Notes: generated by a model not told the origin, from the sequence alone. Shown: positions 496 to 63,371, numbered from the stretch's first letter. The stretch: DNA of 64,000 nt from Candidatus Moraniibacteriota bacterium (GCA_016699975.1 CP064994.1:193222-257221); one strand, 5' to 3'. Made by a program: numbers and translations.

Positions 496-1118
496 GTGTT
501 CCAATGGATTTTTGACCCTTCTATGTTTTCACCGACTCCTCTCGTTATCGAGAAAACGCATTTGGGCGAGCGCGCCTATGATATTTATTCGCGCCTTCTC
601 AAGGAGCGCATCATTTTTTTAAGCGGGCCGATTGATAATGAACTCGCGAACGCTGTTATTGCACAGCTCCTTTTCCTCGATTCGCAGAGCTCCAACGAAG
701 ATATCAAAATGTACATCAATTCGCCCGGTGGAGCGGTCACGGCGGCACTCGCGATCTACGACACGATGCAGCATGTCCGCTCCGACGTCCAGACGATTTG
801 TGTGGGAATGGCGGCCTCAGCGGCGGCGATCATCCTTGCGGCGGGTGCGAAAAAAGCGTCTGATACTTCCGAACAAGCGAAGTCATGATCCATCAGGTCT
901 TGGGTGGTGCCGAGGGTCAAGCGACGGATATCGATATTCATGCCCGTCATATTCTTGCAACTCGAGAGCGTCTCAACCGAATCCTTTCGAAGCATACCGG
1001 CCAAAAAATTTCGAAAATCGCACTTGATACCGAACGTGATCGCTTTATGACTGCTGAGGAAGCTGTTTCGTATGGTATTGTCGACACCATCCTCGAACGA
1101 AAAAGGAGTCTTGGTTGA
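496..1118 (+). CDS. clpP: ATP-dependent Clp protease proteolytic subunit ClpP, interrupted by two +1 frame changes near 850-885 (frame1->frame2->frame3)
   Basis: ORF 496..888 carries FLSGPIDN...[14 protein letters not shown] and ORF 885..1118 carries [24 protein letters not shown], the conserved ClpP halves; a short frame-2 segment KRLILPN bridges them; the A-run gcgaaaaaagcg lies at the first shift. Confidence 0.85.
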
Positions 1119-1198
1119 CATTTTCAAAAAATTCACGTACGATTTTCTTGTTCGTACTGTTCTTTAAATGACTCTTTTCCTCGGTAGAAGGAGGTTGT

Positions 1199-1969
1199 AT
1201 GTCGCGTGATCGTAAAAGAATACTTGTCGCTCCAGAGGGATCGGATATCTTTATTTCTCAAAAAGAGATTCGACTCCCGGCTTTCAAGTCATTTCAAAGC
1301 CTTCCCGCTTATTGTGCAAGGAAAAGGGCAGGTGAACCGGGAAGTTTATGGAGACAAAATTTCATGGACGAGCTTGGAGATGCCCTCGCTTCGCGAAACA
1401 TCATGCCCTTTAATCAATTCCGGAGTGTAAAAGGACCTTTTAGATTTGGGGTAAAGGTATGGCTGTGTCTCAACGGAATCCAAATTCCGGTTCTGATCGA
1501 ATATGATGGCGGTCACCCGATATGTCCTCACCAGTGGGCACTCCCGGGAGGGCTGATAGAGACCGCGTCCGATGCTCAGAGTATTCCAAAACATGCGCTC
1601 CAAGAACTCGCTGAGGAGCTTCTTCCGGTGTATGAGAAAAATGGGGTTTCATATGTTGGCTCATGGCGTTTTGGAGATCGGGTTTTCCGCGCTCCATGGC
1701 TCAATAATTTTTGTCGAAACATGGGCTTTCGGGCAGGGACGCGAGAGTTTGTCCTTGAAAGCGTACTATCACCAGAAAGTTGGTGCGTTTCATTCGGAAG
1801 AACTGATAGAAACGGGGGTGACGGCACTTTTATGGCGCAAGTGATGACCGAACCGAGTACCGGTTCCATTGAATTTGTCTTTTCTCTAAAGGCCGAACTT
1901 CCTTCAGAAGTACGCCTCTTTTGGAGAGAAGTTGATCACCTAAATCACCCCTCCAAAGAAATATCCTAG
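1199..1969 (+). CDS. Hypothetical protein with a degenerate NUDIX-like segment (WALPGG...LQELAEEL)
   Basis: Long ORF with RBS-like ggaggttgtATG; the Nudix box is not canonical. Confidence 0.4.
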   Translation: MSRDRKRILVAPEGSDIFISQKEIRLPAFKSFQSLPAYCARKRAGEPGSLWRQNFMDELGDALASRNIMPFNQFRSVKGPFRFGVKVWLCLNGIQIPVLIEYDGGHPICPHQWALPGGLIETASDAQSIPKHALQELAEELLPVYEKNGVSYVGSWRFGDRVFRAPWLNNFCRNMGFRAGTREFVLESVLSPESWCVSFGRTDRNGGDGTFMAQVMTEPSTGSIEFVFSLKAELPSEVRLFWREVDHLNHPSKEIS

Positions 1970-2105
1970 ATCCAAGGAGCATCGAGCTATATGTTATAGA
2001 CCTCCTTCCATTCAGTAGGAGATGATATAGATATAGAAGATAAACCTTGAAAAAGGCCGCGAGTTTTTTGGAACTCGCGGCTTTCGTCTTTTTGAGATTC
2101 TATTT

Positions 2106-3731
2106 CTATCGGTTGAACACCTCAAGGAGACTTTGACTGTGCATTTCTCGGGGGCGTTCGAGTCCCATGAGTTCGAGAATAGTGGGGGCGACATCGGAGA
2201 GGAGGCCTTCGACTTGAGTTTCCTCGCGCACCATTTCTTCGGCGGTTTTCTCGCGGTGATTGTCTGCGGTGACGAACCAGAGTGGAACCGGATTCTTCGA
2301 ATGTTCTGTGTCAGTTTCTCCTGTTTTGAGATTGCGGATTTCTTCCACATTGCCGTGATCGGCGGTAATAAGGAGCGCGCCGCCCGCTGTGAGAACGGCC
2401 GGAATGAGAAGGGAGAGACACTTGTCGGTCGATTGCACTGCCTCGATCGAGGCTGACTCGTTGCCAGTATGCCCTACCATATCGGGACTCGCATAATTGA
2501 GCAAAATGAAATCATATTTTCCGGATCGTATCGCTTCGATAGTTTTTTCTGTTGTCACTGCGGAACTCATTTCGGGAATTTCATCGAAGTGGGCGACGGA
2601 GGGAGAAGGAATGAGCAGTCGGTCTTCTCCTGGCCACGCGTTTTCCTTTCCGCCGTTAAAGAAGTAGGTGACGTGCGCATATTTCTCGGTCTCTGCGATG
2701 CGGAGTTGTGTTTTCCCATTTCGGCTCAAGATTTCCCCGAGGGCATTGGTAACGTTTTCGGGAGCGAAGGCAACATGGACGGGAAGATTTCGCTCATACT
2801 CCGTCATCGTTACAAAGTCAATGTCGAGCTTCTTGGGACGAGGGAAACCATCAAATTCGGGAAGCGCGAATGCTTTCGTGATTTCTCGGGCGCGATCTTC
2901 GCGATAGTTAAAAAAGACAACAGCATCGCCGTCTCGGACAATTCCCACGGGAACCCCGTCTTTTGAAAGCATGACCGGCTCGATGTATTCATCGGTGACG
3001 CCTTTTCGATAGGACTCTTCGACAAAAGTGAGGAGATCGGTCGTAGAAGGGGTACCTTCGGTCAGGACTCGGTATGCTTTCTCGACACGATCCCAATTAT
3101 TGTTTCGATCCATGCCCCAGTTGCGACCGCCAATGCTTGCTAGAGTGCCTACACTAAGCATATTTGCTCATGCAACGATTTCTTTGAGTGTATGAATGCC
3201 GGATGTCGGGGGTGAATCTCTTCCGTCGGTGAAAGCATGAATGAAGACATTTTTGAGACCATTTTGTGCTGCCATTTGAAGGAGCATATAGAGATGATCC
3301 TTGTTGGAGTGGACCGATCCTTCGCCTACGAGTCCCAGAATATGGAGTGCCCCGCCCGTTTCTTTGACGCGATTCATAGCTCCCATGAAGGCTTCGTTTT
3401 TGTAGAAGGATCCGTCTTGGATCGAGAGGGAAATGCGGGGGAGATTTTGATAAATGACTCGTCCCGCGCCGAGGGTCATGTGACCCACTTCGCTGTTTCC
3501 TGGCGTGTTCCAAGGAAGTCCGACGGCGATGCCGGACGCCTGGAGAGCGGTAAGCGGGTAATATTTATTGAGCTTCTCGATAGTGGGAAGTGTCGCTTCG
3601 CGAATAGGGTTTCCTTGCATCCCAGCGCTGATTCCCCAGCCATCGAGGACGACGAGTACGATAGGTCGGTACATACAATATTTGAGAAGAAATTTTGTCA
3701 GGGTGAAAACATTTTTGAAGAAGTGCCGCAC
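2106..3731 (-). CDS. gpmI: 2,3-bisphosphoglycerate-independent phosphoglycerate mutase, with an in-frame TGA at 3168-3170 splitting it into two same-frame ORFs
   Basis: N-part has VLDGWG...NSEVGH and C-part has ASPDMVGHTG / ITADHGN, the iPGM metal-binding motifs; the two ORFs (3168..3731 and 2106..3161) share one frame across a single TGA. Confidence 0.85.
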
Positions 3732-4145
3732 TTCTTCTTTGAAACACTTTCGCTTTGTTTTCCGGAATCATTCCCTTGCTTTCTTTACCGAAGAAAAAAC
3801 GGCAGGCATGTCCGTTTGGTCACTGCACGCTCTCAAAAAAAGAAAGAAGCACGAACATTTCTCGGAATTTCTTCTATCGTACCACGCTTTGATTTGCTTT
3901 GACAAAACGGTCGGCGCATTTTATGATGAGTCGTACAGTCTAAATTCATATTACCCCGTTTTCAACCGCGAGAGGAAAAGCGAATTCGTTTTTGGTCTAT
4001 GACACTGTTTGATTTCATTTCTTTCTTTTCCGAAGCGATTCCCAGAAAGTTTTCCGGGACGCTCCTTTCCTATTCTCATCTTACGGTGTAAGGGCTTTTT
4101 CCTTACCCTTTTCTCTTTCTGTGGTTGTGAGCGGGTACATTTCTT

Positions 4146-6500: not shown

Positions 6501-7216
6501 ATGCAAACATTTTTCACCCGTGTTCTCGAAAATCGCGAAGTGGCGCGCGGGACGCAAGCGCTTACGCTGGAAAAGCCTTCGGGATTTTCTTTTGTTGCCG
6601 GGCAATATAGTGTCCTCAGCACTGTCGAATTGATGGCGCCTGATCCAAAGGGTCCGCACCGATGTATGTCGATCGCCTCGGCGTCCTTTGAAGAGCATCT
6701 TCTTTTGCAATGCGCCTTTCAGAGAGTGGGTACAAGCAAACGATAGCGAAACTTCTGCCGGGAGACCGTATCGAAGTCGGCGCTCCTTTGGGGCACACCA
6801 CTCTCATTCCGGAAGACCCGCGTCCTGTTGTTTTTTTGATTGGTGGAATTGGGATTACACCCGCACGAAGTATCCTTTTTCAGGCAAATCATGATCGTGA
6901 TGATCGAGAGTTTTTTTTGTTTTATTCGAACTATGATCGGGAAGACGCTGCGTTTTGGGAAGAGCTCGAGCATTTTCCTTTCCTTCGCTACCGATTTATT
7001 CCGACACTTACCGACAGTAAGCTGGGGATGGAGTCATGGGGTGGTGAGCGAGGATTTATTTCTCGAGCTCTCCTCGAGAAATATTTGCCCGACATTCGAA
7101 CTCCACTATACTACCTCGTTGGAACGCTTGGCTTTACTACGGCAATGACGTCAATCCTTATGGAAGCGGGGGTTCAGAAAACAGCAATACGACAGGATCC
7201 TTTTATTGGGTTCTAA
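6501..7216 (+). CDS. FAD/NAD(P)-binding oxidoreductase (ferredoxin-NADP reductase-like), frame changed near 6714-6720
   Basis: N-part has GQYSVLS...RCMSIAS (FAD-binding RxYS motif) and C-part has PVVFLIGGIGITP (NAD-binding); the ORFs 6501..6746 and 6710..7216 overlap. Confidence 0.75.
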
Positions 7217-8602: not shown

Positions 8603-8855
8603 GAAATTGGGAGAGCTCTTGAGGAGGATTCCACTGTTTGGTACGGAGACGATTGGAAAATTCTTTGGACAAAGAGGAGAGCTTTGACGCTATGTTTGCC
8701 GCGCAATTTTTCCCGTATTTCACCGTAAACGGAAGTGGTCATTGAGAGACAGCGCTCGTCTCTCAAGGAATCTGAAAGAGAGGATGCATGAAATCCCTCC
8801 TTCGTTTGGAATAAAGGAAAGAGATGTTCGGACTGAGTTTGTTCTTCTTGTTTTT

Positions 8856-11800
8856 ATGAATCAGTGTCGATTGTTTCGTGGGTGGTTCTGGAGAGGAGTT
8901 CTTCTCGCCACATTTTTTGGCACCTCGTTTTCGTGTGCGTTTGCGGCGAATGAGCAAACGGTTCGGGTTATTGGCGGGCCCGTCTCTCTTTCCGAGTTGT
9001 GGGGAGGAGCGCTCAATACTGGTTCGTTAGCCGAGTGGGGACAAGGAATCGCTCTCCACCGAATGGAAACCGATCGTGAAAACCTCACGCTTCTTTCGGG
9101 GGGAACGCTTTCGTTTTCCTTTGCTCCCGATAAGCCGACAGCATTTCTTCGGGGAGGTATTTTTTCTGGGACGACGGTTGTCGGCTCGTGGGCGGAAAGT
9201 TTGGAAAGGCGAGATGTCTGCGATGCCACGCCGGCAAATTTTTCTGCGGGCGAGAAAGAATATTCGTTTGCACTCTGTGGGAAGAAACCATCTGTTTCAT
9301 TGCAATCGAGCGATGAAAATATTGTCAGTTGCTCCGGCATGTCGTGCGTGGCACATCAGACGGGCTCTGTTCGGATCACCGCTACTATTGCGCCTACACA
9401 GACGGTGCTGTGGGCGAAGCAGAATACCGAAACCAACTGGCAAAGAGCGGGAACAGTAACACTCTCCGAAGGTGTATTGTCGTGGCCAGTGAGTGTGGCA
9501 TCTCCGCCCACGCTTTCTTTCTCCATGAAGGAAACAAATCCGCTCCCGTTTGGATCGTCGGCGACACTTGTATGGTCAGCGGAGAATGCGGTTCGCTGTG
9601 AAGCATCGGGCGCGTGGCAGGGCACCCGAGAGCTTCAGAGTGGGGGATTCTCGACGGGTCCGATATTCGCTCGGCGCGATTACGGACTCCGATGTTGGGG
9701 GTCGGGAGATGATACAGTTGAGAAAACAGTGAGCGTTTTGGTTGGTTCGCCAACGCGGGGCCCAGTTGTCACGCTGACCGCGGGTTCCACGCTTATTCCT
9801 TATGGCAGCGATACTATTTTGTCTTGGTCGTCCGAAAATGCCGACGTGTGTCAGGCAACGGGCGCCTGGGTAAATCCTGGTCCTGGAACACGGGCTCCAA
9901 CCGGCTCTCAGAGTACCGGCAATCTTCGAAGTGATAAAACCTATATTATTGAGTGTTACGGTTCGGGTGGTTCGCAGGCGAAACAGATAACGGTGCATGT
10001 CATTCCTCCGTCGTCCAAGCCGTCCATACAAACATTTTCGGCGAGCCCGGTGTCCGTCGTGTACAACAAGTCGACGACGCTTTCGTGGACGACGCAGAGC
10101 GCTGCTTCTTGTCGGGCGTATGCCGATCCAGTTCGGAGCGATTGGGATGGCACACGGAATATTGAGGGAAAAGAGACCATCTCTGGGCTCCTTGGTACGA
10201 CGCGATTTTTTCTGGAGTGTACCGGAGCTGGTGGAAAAGTGGTAAAAAGTGTCGATGTGAAAGTAGAGCCTCAGGATTTACCGCCTCCAACACTTTCCTT
10301 TTCGGCCGATGAGTCGGCGCTTCCCTATGGCGGAAGCACAGTGCTTCGTTGGGAGTCTCGCTTTGCGGATACATGTCGTGCGAGTCTCGACTGGTCTGGA
10401 GAGAAAGAGAGAAATGGTTCATTCTCTCAAAATATCGGCCCGCTTTCTACTTCAAAACGATACCAACTCTTCTGTGAGAATGCAGCGGGATCGGTCACGG
10501 CGCTTGTTCAAGTATTCGTGGGCGATCCGACGGGTCAGGTTCGAGTATCGCTTTCCGCGGATCAGAATAAGGTGAGTTTGGGAGGGAGAACTACCGTTCG
10601 GTGGACGACGGAGAATGCTTCGACATGCATCTTAAACAAATACCAAAGCGGTACTTCTCAAATTGTTTCGAGAGAATTGGTGGGAAGCGCGAGTACAGGA
10701 ACGCTCACTTCGTCGATATACTATACGCTCACGTGTTCCAATAAGCTCGGTATCGCTTCGGCTTCTGAACCGGTTGTAATCAATCTTTCTCCTGGAGGAA
10801 CATTTTCGGCGCGCCCGCTCATTTCTTTCCAGCGAGACGCAGGATATATTTCTTATAATACGCCGACCACATTGCGGTGGAAGGCGGAGTATGCAGATTT
10901 TTGTGAAGCGTCTTCCAATGCCGATACCCCTCTTGAAAACTGGAACGGCCGAAAGGATATTTCAGGAGTGTCTTCGACTGGAAATCTCATTGGCACGACC
11001 CGATTTACCCTCACATGCCATGGTTCCGGGGGGACAAGCAGTGCTTCGGTGACGGCGACGGTTGGAGATCCGTCGCAGACAGGACCCTCTCTCAAATTTT
11101 GGGCGGATTCATTTACAGTAAATCCGGGCGAGTCGACGACGCTTCGCTGGGAATCGACCGATGCGACGCGCTGCAGCGCTTCTGCTGGATGGTCGGGCTC
11201 CAAAGGAACAAATTCTGGTCAAGTTTACGCGGAAAAAACTCGAAATCTTACAGAAACAACTACCTTTCTTCTTTCCTGTTCGAGCCCAGGCGGAGGTGTT
11301 TCTCTGTCAGTCACTATTTTTGTCGGCTCTTCGGTTGTCGCGCCGAGTCTTAGTTTGTGGGCTGATGCGGCTGTTGTTAATCCCGGTGAGTCGACGATTC
11401 TCCGGTGGAGTTCCTCGTCCGCAACTTCTTGCCGCGCCTTTTCAGATCCAGAATCTCCTCTATGGAGCGGGGAAATGAGCTTTGCAGGCGCGCGAAGAAC
11501 AGGGCCCCTTACGGGAGATCCTGCCGCGGTTCCTCCGCGCCTTACTCAGACCTATCGATTGGTCTGCGAGGGGCCCGGTGGAGAGGTGTCTACCCAAACA
11601 ACTATTGGTATCGGTGTTGCTTCTGGAATCGGGCCCGAAATTACCAATTTCTCGGCCGATGCGTTTGTGATTCCTTTTGATACCGCTCCTACCCTTAGGC
11701 TCTCGAGCAACAATGCGGATGCCTGTTGTCTTACAACTGACACTCCGGATGCGTGTTGGGACAGTACGAGAACACAGTGGATGGAATTGCCGAGTACGAA

Positions 11801-12395
11801 CGGAACCTTTTCGGGACCGCAGGGAATTCTTCCTCTTCGAAATGAAGCGAAGTATCAAGTTGTGTGCCGGAATGCCTCGCTCCCGGGGATACGAGCCGTC
11901 TCACCGCCCATCTCAATTGATGTCGGGAAACTCCTCCTGTGTCCCGCGACTCCTCCTGCGAATCGCGTGAGTGTGGGAGACACGATTCAGCTCAGTGCTC
12001 ATTACACAACAGATCCCTCTGCTACTTGTTTGTCGGGAGATCGGGGAGTCGATGTTACGAGCGGAGCGACATGGGAAGTGATGTCCGGAAATGAACGGCT
12101 TTCTCTCGAAGCACAAAAAGGTCTTTTTCGCGGCGTTCGCGTGGGAATCGCTCGGGTAAGGGTGAGCTATCTTCCAACTGTTGCCGTAGAAACATTCCGA
12201 TCAGAAGCGGATATATTGGTTTTCGAGTCGCGCGAATGCTATCGCTGTGATTCGGAGACATCTCGCTGTGGTGCGTTTTGGAATCCGAGTACCGATACTC
12301 CGCCCACCTGCCCCACTGAACCGGACGTTTTTAGTTCGCTCTCACTGTGCCGTGTTTCTTGCTTTAAGGATCGCTGGGAGGAAGTTGCGCCTTGA
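8856..12395 (+). CDS. Large secreted protein with about 10 tandem ~90-aa Ig-like repeats, each with a conserved Cys pair, plus a C-terminal Big_2-like domain and a Cys-rich tail
   Basis: Signal peptide MNQCRLFRGWFWRGVLLATFFGTSFSCAFA; repeat consensus TLxWxSxxAxxCxASxxWSGxxxxxGxxSTGxLxxxxxYxLxCxGxGG recurs throughout; ORF 8742..12395 with the likely start at 8856. Confidence 0.8.
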   Translation: MNQCRLFRGWFWRGVLLATFFGTSFSCAFAANEQTVRVIGGPVSLSELWGGALNTGSLAEWGQGIALHRMETDRENLTLLSGGTLSFSFAPDKPTAFLRGGIFSGTTVVGSWAESLERRDVCDATPANFSAGEKEYSFALCGKKPSVSLQSSDENIVSCSGMSCVAHQTGSVRITATIAPTQTVLWAKQNTETNWQRAGTVTLSEGVLSWPVSVASPPTLSFSMKETNPLPFGSSATLVWSAENAVRCEASGAWQGTRELQSGGFSTGPIFARRDYGLRCWGSGDDTVEKTVSVLVGSPTRGPVVTLTAGSTLIPYGSDTILSWSSENADVCQATGAWVNPGPGTRAPTGSQSTGNLRSDKTYIIECYGSGGSQAKQITVHVIPPSSKPSIQTFSASPVSVVYNKSTTLSWTTQSAASCRAYADPVRSDWDGTRNIEGKETISGLLGTTRFFLECTGAGGKVVKSVDVKVEPQDLPPPTLSFSADESALPYGGSTVLRWESRFADTCRASLDWSGEKERNGSFSQNIGPLSTSKRYQLFCENAAGSVTALVQVFVGDPTGQVRVSLSADQNKVSLGGRTTVRWTTENASTCILNKYQSGTSQIVSRELVGSASTGTLTSSIYYTLTCSNKLGIASASEPVVINLSPGGTFSARPLISFQRDAGYISYNTPTTLRWKAEYADFCEASSNADTPLENWNGRKDISGVSSTGNLIGTTRFTLTCHGSGGTSSASVTATVGDPSQTGPSLKFWADSFTVNPGESTTLRWESTDATRCSASAGWSGSKGTNSGQVYAEKTRNLTETTTFLLSCSSPGGGVSLSVTIFVGSSVVAPSLSLWADAAVVNPGESTILRWSSSSATSCRAFSDPESPLWSGEMSFAGARRTGPLTGDPAAVPPRLTQTYRLVCEGPGGEVSTQTTIGIGVASGIGPEITNFSADAFVIPFDTAPTLRLSSNNADACCLTTDTPDACWDSTRTQWMELPSTNGTFSGPQGILPLRNEAKYQVVCRNASLPGIRAVSPPISIDVGKLLLCPATPPANRVSVGDTIQLSAHYTTDPSATCLSGDRGVDVTSGATWEVMSGNERLSLEAQKGLFRGVRVGIARVRVSYLPTVAVETFRSEADILVFESRECYRCDSETSRCGAFWNPSTDTPPTCPTEPDVFSSLSLCRVSCFKDRWEEVAP

Positions 12396-12488
12396 GTTGC
12401 ACTCATTTTCACTGTGTTTACTCCGTATCGCGTGCGTATTTGAGAGGCTTTACAAAAAGGTGTAAGGAATTCTATACTGGAGCTTCAG

Positions 12489-12559
12489 GCGAGAGTAGTA
12501 CAATGGTAGTACACTAGCCTTCCAAGCTAGGTACGCGGGTTCGATTCCCGTCTCTCGCT
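12489..12559 (+). tRNA. tRNA-Gly (anticodon TCC)
   Basis: Acceptor GCGAGAG/CTCTCGC, anticodon loop CTTCCAA, T-loop TTCGATT, U73. Confidence 0.85.
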
Positions 12560-12606
12560 CACGATTTTAGACACGTGCGATCGGCTTTTTCTCCTCATTC
12601 ATTTGT

Positions 12607-12636
12607 GAAAAACAGGATCATTGATCCTGTTTTTTG
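12607..12636 (+). terminator. Rho-independent terminator after tRNA-Gly
   Basis: aacaggatc-att-gatcctgtt hairpin followed by tttttt. Confidence 0.7.
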
Positions 12637-12875
12637 CTTTCAACAGAGAACTTTCTGAAGTTGGACTCATGGTATTTCTCTATCAATCAAAGAGAGATAT
12701 TAAAATTATTATCGAAGAGCTGAGATAGTATTCCAGCGCGCGCTTCTCCCCATTTCCTTTTAAAAAGTAAAAAGAGGAAAAAATTTTTTCTCACTTTTCG
12801 AGAGAATCCGCAGAGCAATTTTTTCCTTTCGAAAGAGGAGTTCGACGAAAGAAGACTTTTTGCTATAGTAGGGAC

Positions 12876-14615
12876 ATGAGTATTTCACCAAATCTTATTC
12901 ACGACAAACAAAAGTCGCGTGCTCGCGAAATAGACTTGGTTACCAAAGAGGTGGACGGGTGGTGGGGACGCAGATTCGTTTCTATACGGCGCATGCGGGT
13001 AAACACCTGGAAGGGGGCGCTTCTTCTTTCTTTTGTGGGAGGGGTAATTGCTGGATGTGTCTGGATTGTTTCTCTCGGAGGAGAGCCAGAGTCCTATGCA
13101 AAAGTGGAGCGGGTGGAACCCGAAAAAACACTTCAAGAAGTGATGCGTCTTCGTGGCTGTATTGCTGACGGTCTTCTTTCAGGATATGGGGGAGACACTC
13201 AGTCTTCGATCGATCTCATTAATCGTTCAGAATGTGTGTATTTGCATCGTGCGCTTGAATCGTGGCTCAATCCTCCGGACTTTGAACTCGCTCGTCGCAT
13301 ACAGGGGCACATCACGCGTCCTGTTGTATACGGAATGTTTCTTTCCGAAGCACTCAATACCGAAGCGGAATACTACTCTTCTACCGAGAACCGTGTTCTT
13401 CGGTTTTCCGATATGTGTGAGCCCGGCAGTCAAGGATTTTGGGGCGAACGTACTTGCAAGGCTTCCCTCAATACGCAGGAATATAAGGCGTATGTGAATG
13501 ATATTACGCGAAAGGCAATGGACATGGGTATTCAGAGTTTTCTCTTCGGGCAAATTTCTTTTCAAGATCCCAAAGGGACGCAGGCCCGAGAGGTGTTGGA
13601 AGAGATGCGTCTCTATGCCGCTCAAAAAGATCAAGAGATAGCGATTGGCGCCCAGACAAATACCATCACCGATAAAGATTACCTTGGTTTGTTCGACTAC
13701 ATAGAAGGAGGCGTCGGCGTTTCGGCGGAAGGAGAAGTAGAAGAAAAGCCCTGTGCTTCACGATACGAAAAGGCAGGATGCTGTTGGGCGCTTCTCTGGC
13801 ACCGAAAATATGCGACGCGCGCCAACATGGTTCTTCTCCATTTGGATTGGAGCGGAATAGAAGGGGATGATATGGCGGTCTTTGCTCGAATGGATGCGGA
13901 GACTCGCGCTCGGACGCTTACTCTCCTTCAAAAGAAATTCAATACCGAACAGGGAAAGACGGGATTTCTTTTTCCTTTTCTCGCGACGCTCTACGAGAAG
14001 AACGATGGCTGTTACGGCGCAAAAAAAAGTTTTTACTCGCCCGACAATCGGTACTCATGTAAAGACGAAGACGTCATGAATTCACTCCTTCGTCTGACAT
14101 CTCTTCCAGAAAATTTCGCAAAGAAAGCCGCGTCTTTTTCTCCGGCACCTCTTCCTCTGCCTCAAAAAGAGGCGGGTTCGATCGCTGAGTCGGGAAAGCG
14201 AGAGGAAAAAAACAATGCCGAGTTTGACGGACAAGACGTTCCTGATACCATGATCGCTGGAAAATCGTACACGGTTTCCGTTTCGATGAAGAATACCGGA
14301 ACAACTGAATGGTCAGATAAAGAAGGGTATCGCCTGGGATCACAAAATCCGCAGGACAATACGACGTGGGGCGGACGAGTTTTTCTGGATCCCAACAAAA
14401 CAACGGAGCCCAAGGAGACGCGGACCTTCACTTTTTCGGTGACTGCTCCCGAGAAACCGGGGCGTTACGAGTTTGAGTGGCGTATGCTCCGCGAAGGAGA
14501 GGCCTGGTTTGGAGAGTCTTCTCGAAACAAAACAATTACGGTCGAAGAGCGTCAAGAAGAGCCAATACCTTCGATGACGCACTCTCTTCCATCGCCGCCT
14601 CCATCAAGCTCATGA
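12876..14615 (+). CDS. Hypothetical membrane-anchored protein (579 aa) with a Pro/Ser-rich C-terminal tail
   Basis: Long ORF with TM helix GALLLSFVGGVIAGCVWIVSLGG; no recognised domain. Confidence 0.55.
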   Translation: MSISPNLIHDKQKSRAREIDLVTKEVDGWWGRRFVSIRRMRVNTWKGALLLSFVGGVIAGCVWIVSLGGEPESYAKVERVEPEKTLQEVMRLRGCIADGLLSGYGGDTQSSIDLINRSECVYLHRALESWLNPPDFELARRIQGHITRPVVYGMFLSEALNTEAEYYSSTENRVLRFSDMCEPGSQGFWGERTCKASLNTQEYKAYVNDITRKAMDMGIQSFLFGQISFQDPKGTQAREVLEEMRLYAAQKDQEIAIGAQTNTITDKDYLGLFDYIEGGVGVSAEGEVEEKPCASRYEKAGCCWALLWHRKYATRANMVLLHLDWSGIEGDDMAVFARMDAETRARTLTLLQKKFNTEQGKTGFLFPFLATLYEKNDGCYGAKKSFYSPDNRYSCKDEDVMNSLLRLTSLPENFAKKAASFSPAPLPLPQKEAGSIAESGKREEKNNAEFDGQDVPDTMIAGKSYTVSVSMKNTGTTEWSDKEGYRLGSQNPQDNTTWGGRVFLDPNKTTEPKETRTFTFSVTAPEKPGRYEFEWRMLREGEAWFGESSRNKTITVEERQEEPIPSMTHSLPSPPPSSS

Positions 14616-14696
14616 TTTTCCCTCTTTCCTTATCGAAATGTTGAGAGAAGCGTGATTTTTTCGAAAATTTCATCATTGGTATTGTTGCGCAAAAAA

Positions 14697-14724
14697 ATCT
14701 CCCGGGAAGTGGGAGATTTTTTTT
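14697..14724 (+). terminator. Rho-independent terminator
   Basis: atctccc-gggaagt-gggagat followed by T8. Confidence 0.75.
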
Positions 14725-15057
14725 CGAAGGGACAATAGCTCTTAGATAAGTCCCGCTTGTCCGAAAAAGGTGAGGACGACGAGGGGCATGAGTGCCAAGA
14801 GAAATGCGAAGGAAAGTTCTTCATGCGATACCCTCGGCATTTCTTTTTGAGGGGAACATTCGCATCCTCCTTCATGTGTACACTGCGTACCCTTCTCTTC
14901 CTCACGCGAGACCATAGTGTGGTCCATAGGCGTTTCTTACTCAATTATACTGCTTTTTTTATTTGGGAGAACAAAAAAACGGACGCAGCCTTTGGGCCTC
15001 ACCCGTTCTTGATCTCCTCACTTCCTTACAAAAACAGTATACAGGATACGGGGTCGA

Positions 15058-20706: not shown

Positions 20707-20744
20707 AGAAATATTTCTGAGGGTTATCGCCTGTATAGTTCCAT

Positions 20745-20800: not shown

Positions 20801-20826
20801 TTCCTTCCGTGCTTGTTCGAAGGAAA

Positions 20827-51241: not shown

Positions 51242-51469
51242 GCTGTTTTTTTGCAGCTCAGAATGCAAATGGCGAAACCGAAACAATTGAGGTCCTGCGA
51301 GTCATGAGACCCAAAGGGCTTTTAAATTTTTGAGTGGGTATTTTTATCTTCAGATATTTCTGCTCCACCAAAAGCACTCTGTTTCGAATAAAAATCTCTC
51401 GATAGTTTCCTTGGAAATGGTTCGGTAGAGTGAAGAAGTTCGACGTTGGTATTATCAGCGAGACAGATT

Positions 51470-51922
51470 TTACTCGCATTCGCTTCGAAGGTGAGAGGAA
51501 GAAATGTTCCAACTTCCCGGCAGTGAAACGAAGATTTCTTGAACCTCTTTCGAGAAGTTCGGATTTTGAAATGCGAGACTTTGGTTGTCTGAACCCTCTC
51601 GATGAAAGACATAAATCTTCGTTTCTGTTGACCGGAAGCTTCGAAGTACATTTTGAAGTTCATGCATGCTGCTGTAGTACTTCGGATCCAAGATGCGGTG
51701 TGCGGTATCAATACCGACCGCGAAGTGCGCTCCCGGATAGCACAAGGCTTTTTCTTTGAAGAGTCCTGCATCCGATCGAAAAATTCCGGGCCAGTGACTC
51801 TGGAATTGCCATGCTCTTTCTTGGAACAGGCTCTCGAGGGCGTCAATCATGAACAAGAGAATCAATGAGAAATAGCAAAAAAAGGATTGCTCCGGAAATC
51901 TTGAAAAAGAGGACGGGAGCAT
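51470..51922 (-). CDS. Hypothetical protein; a second overlapping minus-strand frame (51322..51846) suggests another frame change
   Basis: 150-aa ORF; the C-terminal ...WNISSSHLRSE weakly resembles the ISSTxIR motif of nucleotidyltransferases. Confidence 0.3.
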   Translation of the reverse strand: MLPSSFSRFPEQSFFCYFSLILLFMIDALESLFQERAWQFQSHWPGIFRSDAGLFKEKALCYPGAHFAVGIDTAHRILDPKYYSSMHELQNVLRSFRSTETKIYVFHREGSDNQSLAFQNPNFSKEVQEIFVSLPGSWNISSSHLRSECE

Positions 51923-52300: not shown

Positions 52301-53463
52301 ATGTCTCATATACTTTCTCGAAAATCCGGAACTTTATTTTCGGCTTTTCTTTTCGGGGGAATGTTGTTTGGAGTGTTTCTTTCCGACACGGCTCAGGCGG
52401 CGCTTCCTGTTTGTGGAAGTTCGAATGGGCGCTCGTTCGCAGAGGCTCCGCGGAGCGGCTTGTGTGCCTCCGGAGACGCGAGCGCTGTCAATCGTTCGGC
52501 AAACGACTGGGTGTGGAGCTGTGTCACAGATACCGGAGTGGTCGTGAGCCCTTCGCCTCCTCCTCAGGTCATCAACTGTCGTGCCTCGGTATTGGTTTCT
52601 GTTTCTGTCCCTCCCGTGTGTGGAAGCGCGAGTGGAAAAGAATCAAAGGATGCCCCGACCAGCAATTTGTGTTCGGCAGGGGATGCATCGTCAGTAACTC
52701 GCTCGGGGATAATTGGAAGTGGAATTGTGTTGAGTCAGTCTCGGGCCCGGTCGTGAGTCCTGCTCCTCCGTCACGAGTGGTTTCGTGTGAATCGAAGGTT
52801 CAGAAACCGGTTGTAATTCCTCCAACTCCTCCGGTACTTCAGCCGGTATGTGGGAATATGAAAAAAGAAGCGAACGAACAGTGCGATGACGGGAACACCA
52901 GAAATGGTGATGGTTGTACCGCACAGTGTATTCTTGAAATTGAAACTCCGAAGCCTATAGTTGTCCCGACTTTGGTGCCACAGCCTACGCCCGAGCCCAC
53001 AGAAGAACCGAAGAAGGAAGAGAAGCATGAATCATGCGACGGCTCTCTCGGGGATTTTGTTTGGAATGACCGAAACAAGAATGGAGTGCAGGATCCTGGA
53101 GAAGAAGGATTGGGCGGAGTGACGGTGAAACTTATTCATGGGAATCGGGTCGATAAAGATACGACCGATAAAAATGGAAAGTACAAATTTGATGATCTGT
53201 GCAAACGAAACTATACCGTTACGGTCGATGCGAGCGACGTGAAGTCGTGCCAACCGACATTTGATAAGGATGGAAAACTTGATCACTCGACCAATGTTGA
53301 TCTCGGTCGAGATGAGGAATATAAGAAAGCCGACTTTGGATATGCTTGCAGTGCTGCGAAATCGGCACCGCGTACCGGAGCGGGGGCGGTAGGAATATCG
53401 CTTGCAGGAGCACTTGCTTCCGCGGCTGTCTGGGGAGTACGACGATACCTGCCGTTTGGATAA
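52301..53463 (+). CDS. Cell-surface protein with Cys-rich N-terminal repeats, an SdrD-B/Cna-B-like domain and a C-terminal sortase-like sorting signal (APRTG + TM + RRY); frame changed at the G4 run near 52706
   Basis: Signal peptide; repeat CxSGDASxVxRSxxDNWxWxCVxxxGxVVSPxPP; [28 protein letters not shown]...DKNGKYKF; ORFs 52301..52756 and 52249..53463. Confidence 0.7.
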
Positions 53464-57381: not shown

Positions 57382-60027
57382 ATGCTCTTTGGTATGGAAC
57401 GCACCAACACGACACTCATCATCTTTGACGGGAACGCGCTCGTTCACCGGGCTTATCATGCGCTTCCTCCTCTCTCTTCGCCTTCAGGAGAATCCGTGAA
57501 TGCGGTGTATGGAGTTGCACTTACCTTGCTCTCGGTTCTTGAAAAATTTCACCCCGAATATGTCGTTTCGTCGTTCGATCTTCCGGTGCCTACTTTTCGG
57601 CACGCGAAGTTTGCGGATTACAAAGGAACACGTACCAAAACTCCCGAAGAGCTCTCCCTCCAAATTCCTCGAGTGAAAGAACTCATGTCTGCATTCGGTA
57701 TTCCGATTTTCGAACGAGCGGGATATGAGGCGGATGATTGTGTCGGAACGCTCGCTGCTCTCGCGCTCACTGCCGATCCCTCGATTCACGTTGTTATCGT
57801 GACGGGTGACAACGATGCGCTTCAACTTGTGAATGATCGAACGAGCGTCTTTACGCTTCGCAAGGGCATTAAGGATACTGTAGTGTACGACGAACGCGCG
57901 GTCGTTTCGAAATACGGATTCCCTCCCAAAACACTCGTCGAATTTAAGGGCCTTCGTGGTGATGCTTCTGATAATATTCCTGGAGTTCCGGGTATAGGCG
58001 AAAAGGGCGCTACCGATCTTTTGATTCGGTACGGGACGCTCGAAAATATTTTCGCGCACCTTTCGGAGTTGTCTCCTTCGATACGTGCAAAATTGGAATC
58101 GGGGCGCGACTTGGCGTTTCTTTCGCGTGAGCTCGGCACCATCGATACAACAGTTCCTCTCACATTTGACCTTCCCTCTGCTTCTCTCAGTGCGCTCGAT
58201 CCCAAAGTTGTTGAAACGTTTTTTCGTCGTTTCGGATTTTTGAGTTTACTGAAGAAAATTCCGGGCGCTTCTTCGAAAGCGGCGAGCCGAAAAAGTCTTT
58301 CCGAAGAAGTGTCATCCACTCTTTCGTCTCTGGAAGAAGGGAATGCTTTCTTGGCGCGATGGGATCATGCGGAGCGCGCCGCATTTCTCATTCGTCCGGA
58401 GGCAGGAACGCTCTTCGAGGCGTCGCGTTTTTCCTGTGACATCGCATTTCAAAAGGGTGAAACGCGCGAGAGTATTCGTCTTTCGTCCGATGAGTCGTAT
58501 CGGGCGCTTCTCCGAAAATTCTTCGGCAGCTCAATTCCCAAAATAACGTATGACGCGAAAAGCGCCATGAAGCTTCTCAAGACTCTTGATATTTCTCTCG
58601 AGGGTCTTGAGTTTGACATTCTTATTGCGGGATACCTTTTAAACGCCGGAGGAGCACTTTCCTTGGAGCATCTCTTCCTCGAAAATGCACAAGCTCTTCA
58701 AGGCGGAAGTGAGGCGCCTTCTGCGCGAGAACTTTTTTCGCTTCGGATGAGTCTGTTAAAAAAGCTGGAGGCAGTCGCAGCGACACAAGTTCCCGGGAAA
58801 ACAATCCTTGAAGTGTTCTTCTCTCTCGAAATGCCGCTCATTCGTATTCTCTGCGATATGGAGGAAATGGGGATTTGTCTCGAGGGTTCCATCTTGACTG
58901 ATCTATCGAAAGAAATGGAGCGAGAAGTTCGATCGATTGAGCGGGAGATTGTTCTTCTTGCGGGTCGCGAGTTTAATGTGGGCTCTCCGAAGCAGCTTTC
59001 CGAAGTCTTGTTTGAAGAGCTGCATATCCCGACCGACCGGCTCAAGCGAACGAAGACCGGTATTTCGACCGCGTCTTCCGAGCTCGAGAAATTGAAAGAT
59101 GAGTATCCGATCGTACAACTTGTCGAGGACTACCGCGAGCGTGTCAAACTCCGCTCGACCTATCTTGATGTTTTGCCGCGCCTTGTGGATCAAAATTCGC
59201 GACTTCATACCACTTTTCAGCAGGCGCATACGGCAACGGGGCGACTTTCTTCGATTGAGCCAAATCTCCAAAATATTCCCATCCGAAGCGTCTGGGGCGA
59301 GCGGATTCGAAGCGCATTTGTCGCTTCACCGGGCAAACTTTTTGTGGGCGGCGATTACTCGCAGATTGAGCTTCGCGTGGCCGCTCATCTTTCCGAAGAT
59401 AAAGAAATGTGCGCGGCGTTTTCTCGTGGAGAAGATATTCATCGGCGGACGGCGGCGATTGTCTACGGCGTTTCGCCCGAGGTGGTGAGCGATGAAATGC
59501 GACGGAAAGCGAAGGTATTTAACTTTGGTATTCTCTATGGCATGGGAGCGTTCGGGCTTTCCCAAGCAGCGGGCATGTCGCGCGAAGAAGCCGCGACATT
59601 TATTGAGGAATACCTCGAGCATTTTTCGGGCATACGCTCATTTATGGAAGCGATGAAGGAGCGTGCGCGAGAATACGGATACATCGATACCGAACTGGGG
59701 CGTCGTTGTCTTCTTCCGGAGAGCGGGAGCGATAATCGACAAATCGCGGCTGCGGCGGACCGAATGGCGATCAATATGCCGGTTCAGGGACTCGAAGCGG
59801 ATATCGTGAAACTCTCCATGATTGCGACTGATCAACTTATTCGCAAAACGTTTCTGGGGAAAGCAAGTCTCTTGCTACAGATTCACGACGAACTCATTTT
59901 CGAAGTAGATGAGTCTCTTGCTTCTCAATTTCAAGAGGCGGTACGAACGTCGATGGAATCGGTCTATCTGCTTCGTGTCCCGCTGGTTGTCGATGTTTCT
60001 GTTGGCAAAAACTGGGGGGAGATATAA
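57382..60027 (+). CDS. polA: DNA polymerase I
   Basis: 5'-3' exonuclease LIIFDGNALVHRAYHA; polymerase motifs DYSQIELR, RRKAKVFNFGILYGM, QIHDELIFE. Confidence 0.93.
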   Translation: MLFGMERTNTTLIIFDGNALVHRAYHALPPLSSPSGESVNAVYGVALTLLSVLEKFHPEYVVSSFDLPVPTFRHAKFADYKGTRTKTPEELSLQIPRVKELMSAFGIPIFERAGYEADDCVGTLAALALTADPSIHVVIVTGDNDALQLVNDRTSVFTLRKGIKDTVVYDERAVVSKYGFPPKTLVEFKGLRGDASDNIPGVPGIGEKGATDLLIRYGTLENIFAHLSELSPSIRAKLESGRDLAFLSRELGTIDTTVPLTFDLPSASLSALDPKVVETFFRRFGFLSLLKKIPGASSKAASRKSLSEEVSSTLSSLEEGNAFLARWDHAERAAFLIRPEAGTLFEASRFSCDIAFQKGETRESIRLSSDESYRALLRKFFGSSIPKITYDAKSAMKLLKTLDISLEGLEFDILIAGYLLNAGGALSLEHLFLENAQALQGGSEAPSARELFSLRMSLLKKLEAVAATQVPGKTILEVFFSLEMPLIRILCDMEEMGICLEGSILTDLSKEMEREVRSIEREIVLLAGREFNVGSPKQLSEVLFEELHIPTDRLKRTKTGISTASSELEKLKDEYPIVQLVEDYRERVKLRSTYLDVLPRLVDQNSRLHTTFQQAHTATGRLSSIEPNLQNIPIRSVWGERIRSAFVASPGKLFVGGDYSQIELRVAAHLSEDKEMCAAFSRGEDIHRRTAAIVYGVSPEVVSDEMRRKAKVFNFGILYGMGAFGLSQAAGMSREEAATFIEEYLEHFSGIRSFMEAMKERAREYGYIDTELGRRCLLPESGSDNRQIAAAADRMAINMPVQGLEADIVKLSMIATDQLIRKTFLGKASLLLQIHDELIFEVDESLASQFQEAVRTSMESVYLLRVPLVVDVSVGKNWGEI

Positions 60028-60073
60028 ATATTATTATAATGTTTATATTAAAAATAAGTTGAAATTTGAGCAT

Positions 60074-60736
60074 ATGAAAGAGTCATATTTTGGAAATTTT
60101 GATATTCCACCTGGAGAAACGATGACAAGTTTTCGTGAAAAGTTTCTGAAATGGAATAAAGCATTTAGCGGTAAAGCGGAGAATAAAGTGGAGAAGTTTT
60201 CCTCTGGTGATATGTTTCTTCTTGTTTTAGACCAGATTCGTCAAGCTCATCTTCAAGAGGAATTTTCTTCTAATGCAGACTTCATTAAAAATTTGGAAAA
60301 GAAAAAAGAGATAGCATTGAATTTACTGAAATCACTTATTGAATATGTAATTCGATATACAGCACAGATACGGAGATTTGATAAAGCGAGGTTTGAAGTA
60401 GAAAGTGAGCGGGGGGGGGATGAATTCAAGTTGGCTGATTTTGCAAGAAAATCTGCACATGATGCACTTATTGCTCATATTCAAATAACGATTCGTTTCA
60501 TACGGGAGAATTTTATTGAGGTCGATAACAGAGGCGCTCAAGAGGATTCGGAAGAGAAGTGGTCTGTTCTCCCAATAGAAAATATTTCATTTCCAAATCG
60601 TAATCCTTCTCGAATTTTTCTTCCGAGTTACGTAGATTTAAGTAAGCGAGAAACCGTAACTGTTTGGGCGCAGGAGATTCAAAAAGATCTCTCAAAAATA
60701 GATTTTCAAGAAAAAAGCCCCAATGAAAAACATTGA
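60074..60736 (+). CDS. Hypothetical protein (AT-rich)
   Basis: ORF 59909..60736; the first Met after the polA stop is at 60074. Confidence 0.45.
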   Translation: MKESYFGNFDIPPGETMTSFREKFLKWNKAFSGKAENKVEKFSSGDMFLLVLDQIRQAHLQEEFSSNADFIKNLEKKKEIALNLLKSLIEYVIRYTAQIRRFDKARFEVESERGGDEFKLADFARKSAHDALIAHIQITIRFIRENFIEVDNRGAQEDSEEKWSVLPIENISFPNRNPSRIFLPSYVDLSKRETVTVWAQEIQKDLSKIDFQEKSPNEKH

Positions 60737-60744
60737 AGCGAAGT

Positions 60745-61002
60745 TTAGATGATATTGACTATACCGCGGATTACCTCGTTATAGAGAGTCTCATCTGGAA
60801 TATCTGTGAGTTTAAGGGAGGTATTTTCCTCCTGAACTTTTCTCCGGAACTCTTTTAGAAGTGGTTGTATTTCACCCACACTGAAGGTGCCGGCAACTTT
60901 TTCTAAAATCACTGTTTCTATGATTTTTTGGGCCATTTCTCGAATTGCTTCTCTTTGGGAGCATTCTTGAACGACACTTTTGATGAGCAGAGAGGTGGAC
61001 AT
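60745..61002 (-). CDS. Hypothetical small protein
   Basis: 85-aa ORF, convergent with the gene at 60074..60736. Confidence 0.35.
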   Translation of the reverse strand: MSTSLLIKSVVQECSQREAIREMAQKIIETVILEKVAGTFSVGEIQPLLKEFRRKVQEENTSLKLTDIPDETLYNEVIRGIVNII

Positions 61003-61205
61003 TTTATTTGTCTCCTTGTGCCGTGGGTTGCCTACGAAAAAGAGCAGACTTCTATACTCATAATTAAATTCTGATGTACTTTATGTCTCAAAAAATTCCT
61101 GAAAAAGAGGAATGCACATTAAAGCATGAGAAAAATTACATGTCAATACTTTTTCTAAATCGAGTTTTATAGTATAGTGCTCGTATGAAGCATTAATCCC
61201 TTCTT

Positions 61206-62396
61206 TTGTTTCTTATGTCTCCAGGGAAAAAAATTGCGATTGGATTAGGAATTTTCTTTTTAGTGCTGGGAGGATGGTATTCGTCGGGAATCTGGCCGTT
61301 TCAAAAAGCGCCGCGCCAAACCATTGAACTCGAAAATGGCAAAGAAAAGCCCACTCCTTCGAATGACGTAAAACCGATTCAGAATACGGGGCCGGTGAGC
61401 CCTATTACCGGAGTGGCGTGTGATAATTGGAACAAGCGGCCGATTGCCGTTATGCAGCCTGCCGACAGAACTGCGCGTCCTGCGGCGGGTTTTTCGGATG
61501 CGGATATCGTTTTCGAAATGCCAGTTTTCACGAATTCCAACACGCGTCTCATGGGAATTTATCTCTGCACTATCCCTAAGGATATTGGTTCCATGAGGAG
61601 CGCGCGTCATGATTATTTGCCCCTCGCGAAAAGTTTCGACGCGGTGTTTGTGCATTGGGGATATTCGAAATTTGCAGAAACGCTCCTTTCTCAAAAGGTG
61701 ATCGATAACATCAACTGTCTCACCATGTCGTGTCCTCGGTGGCCGCGAACGGGTATGATGAAACTAGAAGATACGGGTCACATTACTGCGGAAGGAATAG
61801 ACCAGGCAATGAAAAAATTCGGCTACAAAACAGAAGGAACTTTTTCTGGCTATCCTCACCAAGAAGAAGCGTCACTCGAAAATCGGCCACAGTCGGGAAC
61901 GCTCCGAGTCTCTTTCCCGAATCCGTATGATGTGACCTATACCTACGATCGCGCCACCAACTCGTATCTGCGCACGTGGGATAAAGATCCTGATACCGAC
62001 AAAAACAATGGGAAGCGAATTGCGCCGAAGAATGTGGTGGTGATGGTTGCGGAGTCGGAACAGATTCGCCTCGATATCGATTATGCTGCTCGCGGCGTCA
62101 AAAATCCCTGGGACTTGGTTCCTGAGGAAGATCGAGCGGGTCTCAACTATGGCGGAGTCGGTCGCTACAACAATATCAATATGGGTGATCCGTGGTTCGA
62201 CACCAAGGACAGTGGAGAAGCATATTTCTACATGAACGGCAAAGAAACACGTGGCACTTGGAAAAAAGACAAGAAGAGCCTCGAAAGCAAACTCACGTTT
62301 CTTGATGAAGCCGGAAAAGAAATCATGTTCGTTCCGGGGCAAATCTGGGTCGAAGTGCTGGAGCCCGGTCAGGGTCGTAAGTGGCAAGCGCAATGA
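61206..62396 (+). CDS. DUF3048 domain secreted protein or lipoprotein
   Basis: Signal peptide; PITGVACDNWNKRPIAVMQPADRTARP...DIVFEMPVFTNSNTRLMGIY. Confidence 0.65.
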   Translation: MFLMSPGKKIAIGLGIFFLVLGGWYSSGIWPFQKAPRQTIELENGKEKPTPSNDVKPIQNTGPVSPITGVACDNWNKRPIAVMQPADRTARPAAGFSDADIVFEMPVFTNSNTRLMGIYLCTIPKDIGSMRSARHDYLPLAKSFDAVFVHWGYSKFAETLLSQKVIDNINCLTMSCPRWPRTGMMKLEDTGHITAEGIDQAMKKFGYKTEGTFSGYPHQEEASLENRPQSGTLRVSFPNPYDVTYTYDRATNSYLRTWDKDPDTDKNNGKRIAPKNVVVMVAESEQIRLDIDYAARGVKNPWDLVPEEDRAGLNYGGVGRYNNINMGDPWFDTKDSGEAYFYMNGKETRGTWKKDKKSLESKLTFLDEAGKEIMFVPGQIWVEVLEPGQGRKWQAQ

Positions 62397-63371
62397 TTCT
62401 CTTTTTCTTCGGGGAAGACGCTTTCCGTATTCGAGAGCGGCGCCTCGAGTTAATACGTGCCTTTTTCGAAAAAAACCCGGGTTCCTCGGGTTTTTTCGAA
62501 TTTGATTTTTCGGATGGGGCTTCTTTGAAGGACCTTACTTCTTGCCTTTCGCAATCAGGTCTTTTTGCAGCCAAAAAATTCGTTATTGCGGGGAATATTT
62601 TTGACGCTCCTCTCGAAGTACGACGCCTCCTTTCGGAATATCTTGATGTGGAAGGGGAGATGATCGCTCGAGATTCGCAACGCATTCTCCTTTTTTTTCA
62701 AAATGGTGAGCCAAAAAAGAATGAGAAGTTGTGGAAATCTCTTTCATCGAATTTCGTGAAGTCGCAGGCATTTCCGCTTCTCTCAGGAAACGAACTCCAT
62801 CAATTTCTTTCTTCTCTCATCACAACGTTTCACGGAAGGGGGATTGAGGCACCGGCACGCGCGCTTCTTCTTGAACGGTGCCAAAAACGACTTGTTTCGT
62901 CTCCGAGAAGAAGCGCGAAAACTCGTGGCTTTTCGCGCAGGCGAGATGATTCGTGAAGAAGATGTGCGTCTCCTTCTTCCCTTTGCTCCGGAAGAAGAAA
63001 GTGTTTTTCGCGCGCTTGACCTTTTGTTTTCCGGGAACAGGAAGGAAGCAATGATGGTATTCTCGCGACTGGGAGTTCCGGGAGAAGCCCTCGGCCTTCT
63101 TGGGATGTGCGCGTGGCAGCTCAAGAATATCATTCGCGTGAAGGGTGCTCTTCTTGATGGAAGTCTGAAGAATGCAGCTGAAGCGGCTCGACTCTTGGGC
63201 ATGCATCCCTTTGCTGCGACAAAGTGTTTTGATATCGCCAGTCGACTGACCCTTAAAGCGGCGGAAGATTTATTTCTTCGACTGACTCGGCTCGATCGTG
63301 AAGCGAAAAGCGGGGTTCGAGACCCCGACGATGCCCTGCGCGCGTTTGTGCTTGAAGAGTCATGTTTTTAA
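62393..63371 (+). CDS. holA: DNA polymerase III delta subunit, frame changed at the A5 run near 62905
   Basis: MILFFFGEDAFRIRE N-terminus; ORFs 62381..62956 and 62844..63371 overlap; ATGA overlap with the upstream gene. Confidence 0.7.

Follow-up and report, generated by a model that had tools for sequence, protein, structure and literature searches.

We describe here the frame-disrupted genes of a 64,000-nucleotide stretch (the window) of CP064994, the circular 1,048,819-bp genome of a Candidatus Moraniibacteriota bacterium (Moranbacterales, Patescibacteria; GCA_016699975.1, CP064994.1:193222-257221). About 15 genes in these 64 kb, approximately a quarter of those present, are frame-disrupted or interrupted by a stop codon. 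We are highly confident that the breaks that could be tested are residual Nanopore consensus errors of the deposited assembly and not mutations of the organism, because short-read assemblies carry every testable gene intact.

A preliminary description of the window, made from the sequence alone, had counted at least ten genes in need of frame correction, and alignments to Pfam profiles, orthologues, and sister contigs raise this number to approximately 15. The genes that it listed were correctly identified, and three were missed: those for a penicillin-binding protein (PBP), a 275-aa hypothetical protein, and 2,3-bisphosphoglycerate-independent phosphoglycerate mutase (iPGM). It had also stated that essential genes (clpP, holA) are struck, and both are indeed broken in the window and intact in short-read contigs. 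The comparison with sister-genome orthologues that it recommended was carried out and yielded intact versions of ClpP, the 275-aa gene, iPGM, the PBP, DUF475, DUF4012, and HolA.

Source assembly and comparators

CP064994 was deposited as the metagenome-assembled genome (MAG) Hirt_18-Q3-R61-65_MAXAC.378_cln, a single circular contig (Singleton et al., 2021; PMC8012365). It is classified as Patescibacteria; Paceibacteria_A; Moranbacterales; UBA1568, with a CheckM completeness of 67.73% and contamination of 0.99%, and its documented coverage is 10.93x for Nanopore (npcov) and 5.38x for Illumina (ilmcov) (PMC8012365, Supplementary Data 3). The genome was assembled from Nanopore reads with CANU v1.8, polished with Racon (Nanopore) and twice with medaka v0.6.5, and finally passed once through Racon with Illumina reads (--include-unpolished) (PMC8012365). 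Given this pipeline and these coverages, the window is a low-coverage long-read consensus that received only thin polishing with accurate short reads. Six of its open reading frames (ORFs) exactly match deposited IPL87_* proteins in the range QQS21093-QQS21136.

As comparators, we used Illumina-type contigs from Logan and the ENA that were found via exact or near-exact protein matches, and those at strain level cover 27.2 kb (42%) of the window. One Logan contig (L113, SRR32934939) has no single-nucleotide polymorphisms (SNPs) or other differences relative to window positions 1-2492 except in two clusters, 849-875 and 1848-1946, and thus represents the same strain. A second (L001, Logan) shows 11 further SNPs in the same stretch and stems from a slightly different strain, and an ENA contig (L002) differs by one SNP in 3 kb outside a cluster at 3701-3774. 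Two further contigs, L112 (Logan SRR15021097) and L111 (ENA ERZ27239125), are 99.88% and 99.8% identical to the window over 15129-21959 and 59871-63681, respectively. The contigs of the P0003 cluster belong to another species (77.6% nucleotide identity to the window) and serve as protein orthologues only.

Disrupted genes with intact counterparts

The disruptions that could be placed against short-read contigs or orthologues are as follows.

523-1118, plus strand: clpP, net shift of -1, gene spread over three frames
1199-2025, plus strand: 275-aa hypothetical gene, error cluster at 1848-1946
2109-3674, minus strand: iPGM, in-frame TGA at 3168-3170
3701-3774, no strand: intergenic cluster upstream of iPGM, about nine indel events in 75 bp
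6501-7216, plus strand: FNR-like NAD-binding oxidoreductase, frame switch at T4, 6703-6706
15058-17141, plus strand: class A PBP (transglycosylase and transpeptidase), A5 at 17114-17118
17291-18218, plus strand: DUF475/TerC-like membrane protein, two homopolymer contractions
20836-22231, minus strand: DUF4012 protein (Pfam DUF4012), net 53-bp loss at 21023
62393-63371, plus strand: holA (DNA polymerase III delta subunit), 32-bp deletion between 62887 and 62888

The Pfam CLP_protease profile matches clpP in two frames (profile positions 3-99 and 106-181). At 850-855, the A6 of the window corresponds to A8 in both L113 and L001, and an extra A follows at 875, so that correction needs +2 and then -1. 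Both contigs encode an intact 198-aa ClpP; once the window-specific indels are undone, the product equals P0032, from an independent short-read assembly, residue for residue. The two changes proposed earlier for this gene are therefore present, the first being the loss of two A's from A8. In the neighboring 275-aa gene, the cluster consists of two mismatches, an inserted TT at 1919-1920, a missing TG after 1925, and a missing A after 1946; tblastn places the frame switch at approximately 1942-1951, the final 25 aa are out of frame, and L113 encodes the protein intact. At all sites in these two genes, L113 and L001, which represent two different strains, agree with each other and against the window, and since L001 shares the L113 state, it is the window state that is unique.

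A different kind of event struck iPGM, the Pfam match of which falls into two pieces (2109-3167 and 3171-3767). Here, four substitutions lie within 31 bp (3141, 3155, 3170, and 3171) with no indel, a substitution-type error cluster unlike the others; they place a stop where R169 is expected and Ser where G174 is expected, both of which residues are kept in a species that is 77% identical at the DNA level. L001 has CGA (Arg) at the TGA site and an intact gene. We also weighed the use of TGA as a sense codon and discarded it, given that the in-frame TGA is single, that L001 has CGA, and that the Arg at this position is conserved. A collection of 15 billion proteins contained neither the truncated ClpP nor the truncated iPGM product. 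Upstream of iPGM, the independent short-read assemblies L001 (Logan) and L002 (ENA) agree with each other and against the window throughout 3701-3774. This densest of all error clusters is intergenic, and the events thus ignore coding.

For the FNR-like gene, a 238-aa orthologue aligns with residues 1-80 in frame 3 and residues 69-238 in frame 2, and Pfam NAD_binding_1 matches the C-terminal piece. The frame change reported earlier is real, although its position (6714-6720) was wrong: the switch lies at T4, 6703-6706, where, judging from the window's own frames, T5 would restore the reading frame. In the PBP gene, the window has A5 and L112 has A6, with the consequence that the ORF runs past the true stop in the wrong frame to 17358. 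With A6 restored, the protein has 694 aa and equals P0180, which is present in Logan and ENA assemblies, whereas the deposited protein (QQS21100.1) has 743 aa. The Pfam match of the DUF475 gene is split between profile positions 1-97 and 124-286, and alignment to L112 shows that T7 has become T6 (17601-17606) and A8 has become A7 (17642-17648), two contractions that are each corrected by +1; the repaired protein equals P0060 (309 aa), residue for residue. Only the latter contraction had been noticed before.

Two genes lost longer segments. In the DUF4012 gene, the window has a single G at 21023 where L112 has 54 bases, leaving the C-terminal 61 aa out of frame, as judged from the L112 alignment and translation. 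In holA, 32 bp that are present in L111 are missing directly 3' of A5 at 62883-62887, and the N and C domains consequently match Pfam in two frames. With the 32 bp restored and the window's own Val kept, HolA has 336 aa and equals P0182 (Logan), and the 11-aa segment encoded by the lost bases is found in HolA orthologues. The deposited annotation instead holds two hypothetical proteins, QQS21142.1 (187 aa) and QQS21143.1 (141 aa). Both genes had correctly been called broken, and it is the cause that needed revision: neither a single-base change near 20990 in the DUF4012 gene nor a length change of A5 near 62905 in holA is responsible. In summary, independent and accurate assemblies at strain level (L113, L111, and L112) lack the indels of the window, and the corresponding intact proteins (P0032, P0060, P0180, and P0182) are found in public short-read data.

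Two copies of an IS30-family element

The window contains its own internal control in the form of two copies of an IS30-family element.

22318-23394, plus strand: IS30-family element, copy A, transposase split over several frames
31476-32561, minus strand: IS30-family element, copy B, better-preserved copy, split into three frames

Both transposases are split, as had been supposed, and both match the NCBIfam model NF033563: the fragment at 31658-32317 scores 144.9 bits against a cut-off of 80, the C-terminal fragments score 79.8 bits, and the profile is covered in pieces 27-210 and 198-267. The two copies were compared by self-BLAST and global alignment; over 1086 columns, they differ by nine 1-base gaps, each a base missing from copy A, and by no substitution. 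Since real divergence would bring substitutions too, this pattern points to errors in the sequence; if indels made up 30% of true differences, the chance of nine indels out of nine would be 2e-5. Short reads map ambiguously in repeats, which would account for a polishing failure in these elements.

Spectrum and distribution of the events

The enrichment at homopolymers that had been noted by eye is borne out by counting. Among runs of at least 6 bases in the comparator contigs, 5 of 85 are shortened in the window, including two of the eight runs of length 8, whereas none of the 489 runs of 4-5 bases is changed in length (Fisher P = 6e-5). Likewise, 5 of 17 indel events fall in runs of at least 5 bases, a class that accounts for 4.7% of the bases compared (P = 9e-4). 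Deletions outnumber insertions by approximately 22:4 when events from the L001 and L112 alignments and from the IS30 pair are taken together. The window thus displays length-dependent contraction, deletion bias, and a large excess of indels over substitutions.

The changes are clustered rather than evenly spread, and the word "pervasive" used for them earlier needs to be qualified accordingly. Events lie together within at most 100 bp, approximately 10 kb of compared sequence are free of indels, and 8617-15276 and 25420-29003 show SNPs but no gaps relative to short-read contigs. Under a Poisson distribution with a mean of 5.4x, approximately 3% of positions would be covered by at most one Illumina read and approximately 10% by at most two, as would be expected if brief stretches had escaped polishing. 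That the clusters correspond to sites of thin Illumina coverage is our inference.

A model of the errors and points against it

Nanopore sequencing has difficulty with long homopolymers (PMC9716684). In the mechanism that we propose, Illumina reads would at some sites have been too thin, or would have mapped to multiple places (as in the two IS30 copies), so that the Nanopore consensus was left unchanged there. The surviving errors would then lie in short clusters and would comprise long homopolymers that have lost bases, deletions of 1-2 bases at scattered sites, a small number of substitutions, and the 32- and 53-bp dropouts. Each error inside a gene would split it, and annotation would subsequently yield fragments or read-through products. 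The window closely resembles residual-indel Nanopore assemblies of the R9 era with incomplete short-read polishing, with which it shares length-dependent homopolymer shortening, deletion bias, clustering, the heaviest damage in repeats (here, IS30), and split or read-through gene calls. It differs from them in the 32- and 53-bp dropouts and in the substitution cluster at 3141-3171 that creates a stop. The suggestion that the breaks arose by sequencing or assembly error of the uncorrected long-read kind is thus upheld by the source data, the intact genes of the same strain, the repairs, and the IS30 pair, all of which agree.

Several points weigh against consensus error as the cause. The comparison was made at the level of assemblies, and strain-level comparators reach only 42% of the window. 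L111 and L112 carry a few SNPs relative to it and are close relatives that are not provably the same clone, and the iPGM stop is judged from one comparator, L001, of a slightly different strain. The 32- and 53-bp deletions are atypical of homopolymer error and need a less common failure of consensus or polishing. Breaks in a SagB/YcaO locus, in two small membrane genes, and in a surface protein (all described below) were judged from the window sequence alone. No verbatim match was found for the surface, FNR-like, and DUF4012 proteins after repair, nor for three repaired forms of the small membrane protein at 29116-29650 and two of that at 30712-31172, and the repairs of these genes remain inferences. 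The converse possibility, that the errors lie in the short-read contigs, was rejected because several independent assemblies agree and their versions give full-length conserved proteins.

A variable island downstream of tRNA-Asn

The segment 28930-46000 forms a strain-variable mobile island of low GC content (approximately 35-42%) that starts directly after a tRNA-Asn gene, and it houses several of the breaks for which other explanations deserve attention.

28930-29002: tRNA-Asn
29116-29650, plus strand: small membrane protein, probable 1-base deletion within 29425-29473; one added base gives a 177-aa ORF
29651-30595: DDE_Tnp_4 transposase
30712-31172, plus strand: small membrane protein, probable 1-base deletion within 30910-31063; one added base gives a 153-aa ORF
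33868-35970, plus strand: SagB-type dehydrogenase and YcaO, three frames, changes near 34500 and 35080
37183-38865, minus strand: large serine recombinase
41118-44369, minus strand: 1083-aa ORF

IS30 copy B also lies within the island. The sister strains represented by L097 and L108 bear other recombinase-carrying islands at the same tRNA. A repeat of the 3' end of tRNA-Asn that, in the manner of an att site, would mark the far end of the island was looked for and not found. The small membrane genes were analyzed by three-frame reading and a scan for single-base repairs, which gave the intervals listed above.

In the SagB/YcaO locus, the Pfam Nitroreductase match of SagB is split between profile positions 2-40 and 94-166, and the YcaO match begins at profile position 70. 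The locus appears to have been deposited as three proteins, QQS21113-21115, to judge from the three numbers between QQS21112 and QQS21116. The only relatives found for the YcaO/DUF2268 segment are 92% identical, and they end or diverge at approximately 35072-35130, near one of the frame changes.

Upstream of this locus, IS30 copy B abuts a 5'-truncated gene of the Peptidase_C14 family that starts at 32562. Homology to a 592-aa Peptidase_C14 gene of L108-L110 begins exactly at this position, which marks a structural truncation and not an indel. The window gene, IPL87_01105, encodes 350 aa; the N-terminal 242 aa, among them the caspase-like domain, are absent from it and were not recovered from any other part of the window.

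The surroundings of this gene differ between strains. In L108-L110 (10001-13392 of L108), the 592-aa Peptidase_C14 protein is followed by a 42-aa ORF and then by an MvdD-like enzyme of the ATP-grasp type. Window positions 32562-35970 hold the same conserved stretch, with homology stopping at 33968, inside the 42-aa ORF, and then SagB/YcaO instead. On the strength of this gene arrangement, 32562-35970 looks like a variable locus of the type that produces ribosomally synthesized and post-translationally modified peptides (RiPPs), in which modification enzymes are swapped beside a shared small ORF. Such a swap in a bacterium of the candidate phyla radiation (CPR) may merit separate study.

In the 92%-identical contigs L098-L107, the neighbors of the DUF2268 gene are Fic, LigB, FMN reductase, GT2, and RND efflux genes and not a recombinase island. 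Homology to these contigs stops at 37289, within the recombinase ORF and approximately 100 bp from its 3' end, a position that may correspond to an island boundary.

Alternative explanations

A mixed origin is the alternative that we take most seriously, and we consider it possible though somewhat doubtful: the breaks in core genes would be assembly errors, while some disruptions in the island (29-46 kb), at least one of them genuine, would stem from accessory genes that are truly decaying. This could hold for SagB/YcaO, the two small membrane genes, the breaks common to both IS30 copies, and the 5'-truncated Peptidase_C14-family gene. The setting is suggestive, as the island follows tRNA-Asn, is lower in GC, and differs between strains; the end of IS30 copy B coincides exactly with the start of the Peptidase_C14 homology (32561/32562), a change of structure rather than an indel, and three independent contigs, 92% identical, stop or diverge close to the frame change in YcaO (approximately 35072-35130). 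However, the same error process is active within the island, where copy B belongs to a pair with nine gaps and no substitution, one added base mends each break in the small genes, and no comparator carries any of these island breaks in an independent assembly. Genuine and very recent pseudogenization throughout, in the Hirtshals population and as part of the reductive evolution of a host-dependent CPR bacterium, is by contrast very unlikely. In its favor, CPR bacteria have small genomes and are considered host-dependent (PMC8012365), and the comparator contigs come from other samples, so that the same population was not directly sampled. It is hard to reconcile with zero SNPs relative to L113 alongside two clusters of at most 100 bp that together hold eight events (indels or substitutions), with nine indels and no substitutions in the IS30 pair, with contraction that depends on homopolymer length, or with deletion-biased events whose densest cluster is intergenic. 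Breaks affect approximately a quarter of the genes, among them clpP and holA in a manner that looks lethal, yet the fragments are 99-100% identical to intact relatives, and the polishing reads are documented at only 5.4x. None of the tested disruptions recurs in an independent contig or protein, and the substitutions expected under relaxed selection are absent from the L113 comparison, from the IS30 pair, and from the repaired proteins, which are identical to intact ones. Pseudogene-rich reductive genomes, such as those of Mycobacterium leprae and recently host-restricted symbionts, resemble the window in their many frameshifts and stops and in their insertion sequence elements. They differ from it in that, in the window, fragments match intact genes of the same strain at 99-100% identity, indels come without substitutions, the core genes clpP and holA are struck, and non-coding DNA bears the same type of event.

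Programmed recoding, in which ribosomal frameshifting or transcriptional slippage at poly-A/T would restore full-length proteins, has a probability that we regard as close to negligible. Five verified sites do lie in A/T runs of 5-7 bases, and frame changes at A/T runs in some genes recall both the poly(A) slippage of endosymbionts and programmed ribosomal frameshifting, of which prfB and dnaX are examples. Efficient transcriptional slippage is, however, known at runs longer than these. In every relative seen, the orthologues of ClpP, the FNR-like protein, DUF475, and HolA are each encoded by one uninterrupted ORF, with no conservation of the slip sites, and a single defined shift is insufficient, as clpP needs +2 and then -1 and DUF475 needs +1 twice; slippage can rescue neither a 32-bp or 53-bp deletion nor a TGA stop. 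The window therefore departs from such systems in its unconserved arrangement, short runs, mixed-direction corrections, multi-base deletions, and nonsense codon. It is also highly improbable that the 32-bp holA and 53-bp DUF4012 deletions, together with the island breaks (SagB/YcaO and the small membrane genes), are true Hirtshals alleles. If they were, a freely circulating CPR lineage would live on despite a broken delta subunit of the clamp loader, or else the long reads would have captured a dying subpopulation that the deletions mark. Consensus error thus remains the preferred explanation for the tested breaks. The caveat raised at the outset, that pseudogenization or slip-tolerant translation might be involved, is contradicted at the testable sites and may hold at sites in the island only.

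Further features of the window

A surface protein outside the island carries another break.

52301-53463, plus strand: Cys-rich surface protein with SdrD B-like domain, frame switch at G4, 52705-52708

The G4 break is well supported from within the sequence itself: G5 in place of G4 would give a 387-aa ORF, and with the additional G, the second copy of an internal repeat (CGS..G...NLC..GDAS.V....W.W.C) aligns with the first. The protein comprises two Cys-rich repeats, a DUF4215 motif, the SdrD B-like domain, and a hydrophobic C-terminal anchor. Close by, 51322-51922 on the minus strand holds two overlapping ORFs (174 and 150 aa) in different frames, with a frame shift in coding potential near 51600, and this pair may be a further split gene. 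Many short ORFs, the 51322-51922 pair among them, had no Pfam match.

For the window's threonyl-tRNA synthetase (ThrRS; 18967-20706), a search of a set of species-representative contigs returned only relatives of at most 59% identity from Patescibacteria MAGs and no close genome, and no exact protein matches were found for ThrRS, an 881-aa ORF (57382-60027), or P0018. Alignment of the ThrRS of an unrelated Saccharibacteria MAG (CAZCWH010000014.1) to that of the window runs over two frames, which shows that CP064994 is not the only public MAG with split genes.

Implications

The disrupted frames are a real property of the deposited sequence and not of the organism, the biology of which is ordinary in this respect, and the value of the finding is that of a warning for curation. 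CP064994 was deposited as a circular high-quality MAG, yet approximately a quarter of the genes in a 64-kb sample are broken by consensus errors. Public annotation passes this damage on, with a split holA, a read-through PBP, a SagB/YcaO locus that is apparently represented by three proteins, and ClpP and iPGM products that are absent. The low CheckM completeness (67.7%) may be due in part to consensus errors, although certain marker genes are also truly absent from CPR genomes. Work that relies on CP064994 to count pseudogenes, reconstruct metabolism, estimate completeness, or claim gene loss in CPR bacteria would be misled, and the same caution applies to other low-coverage genomes of the same data set.

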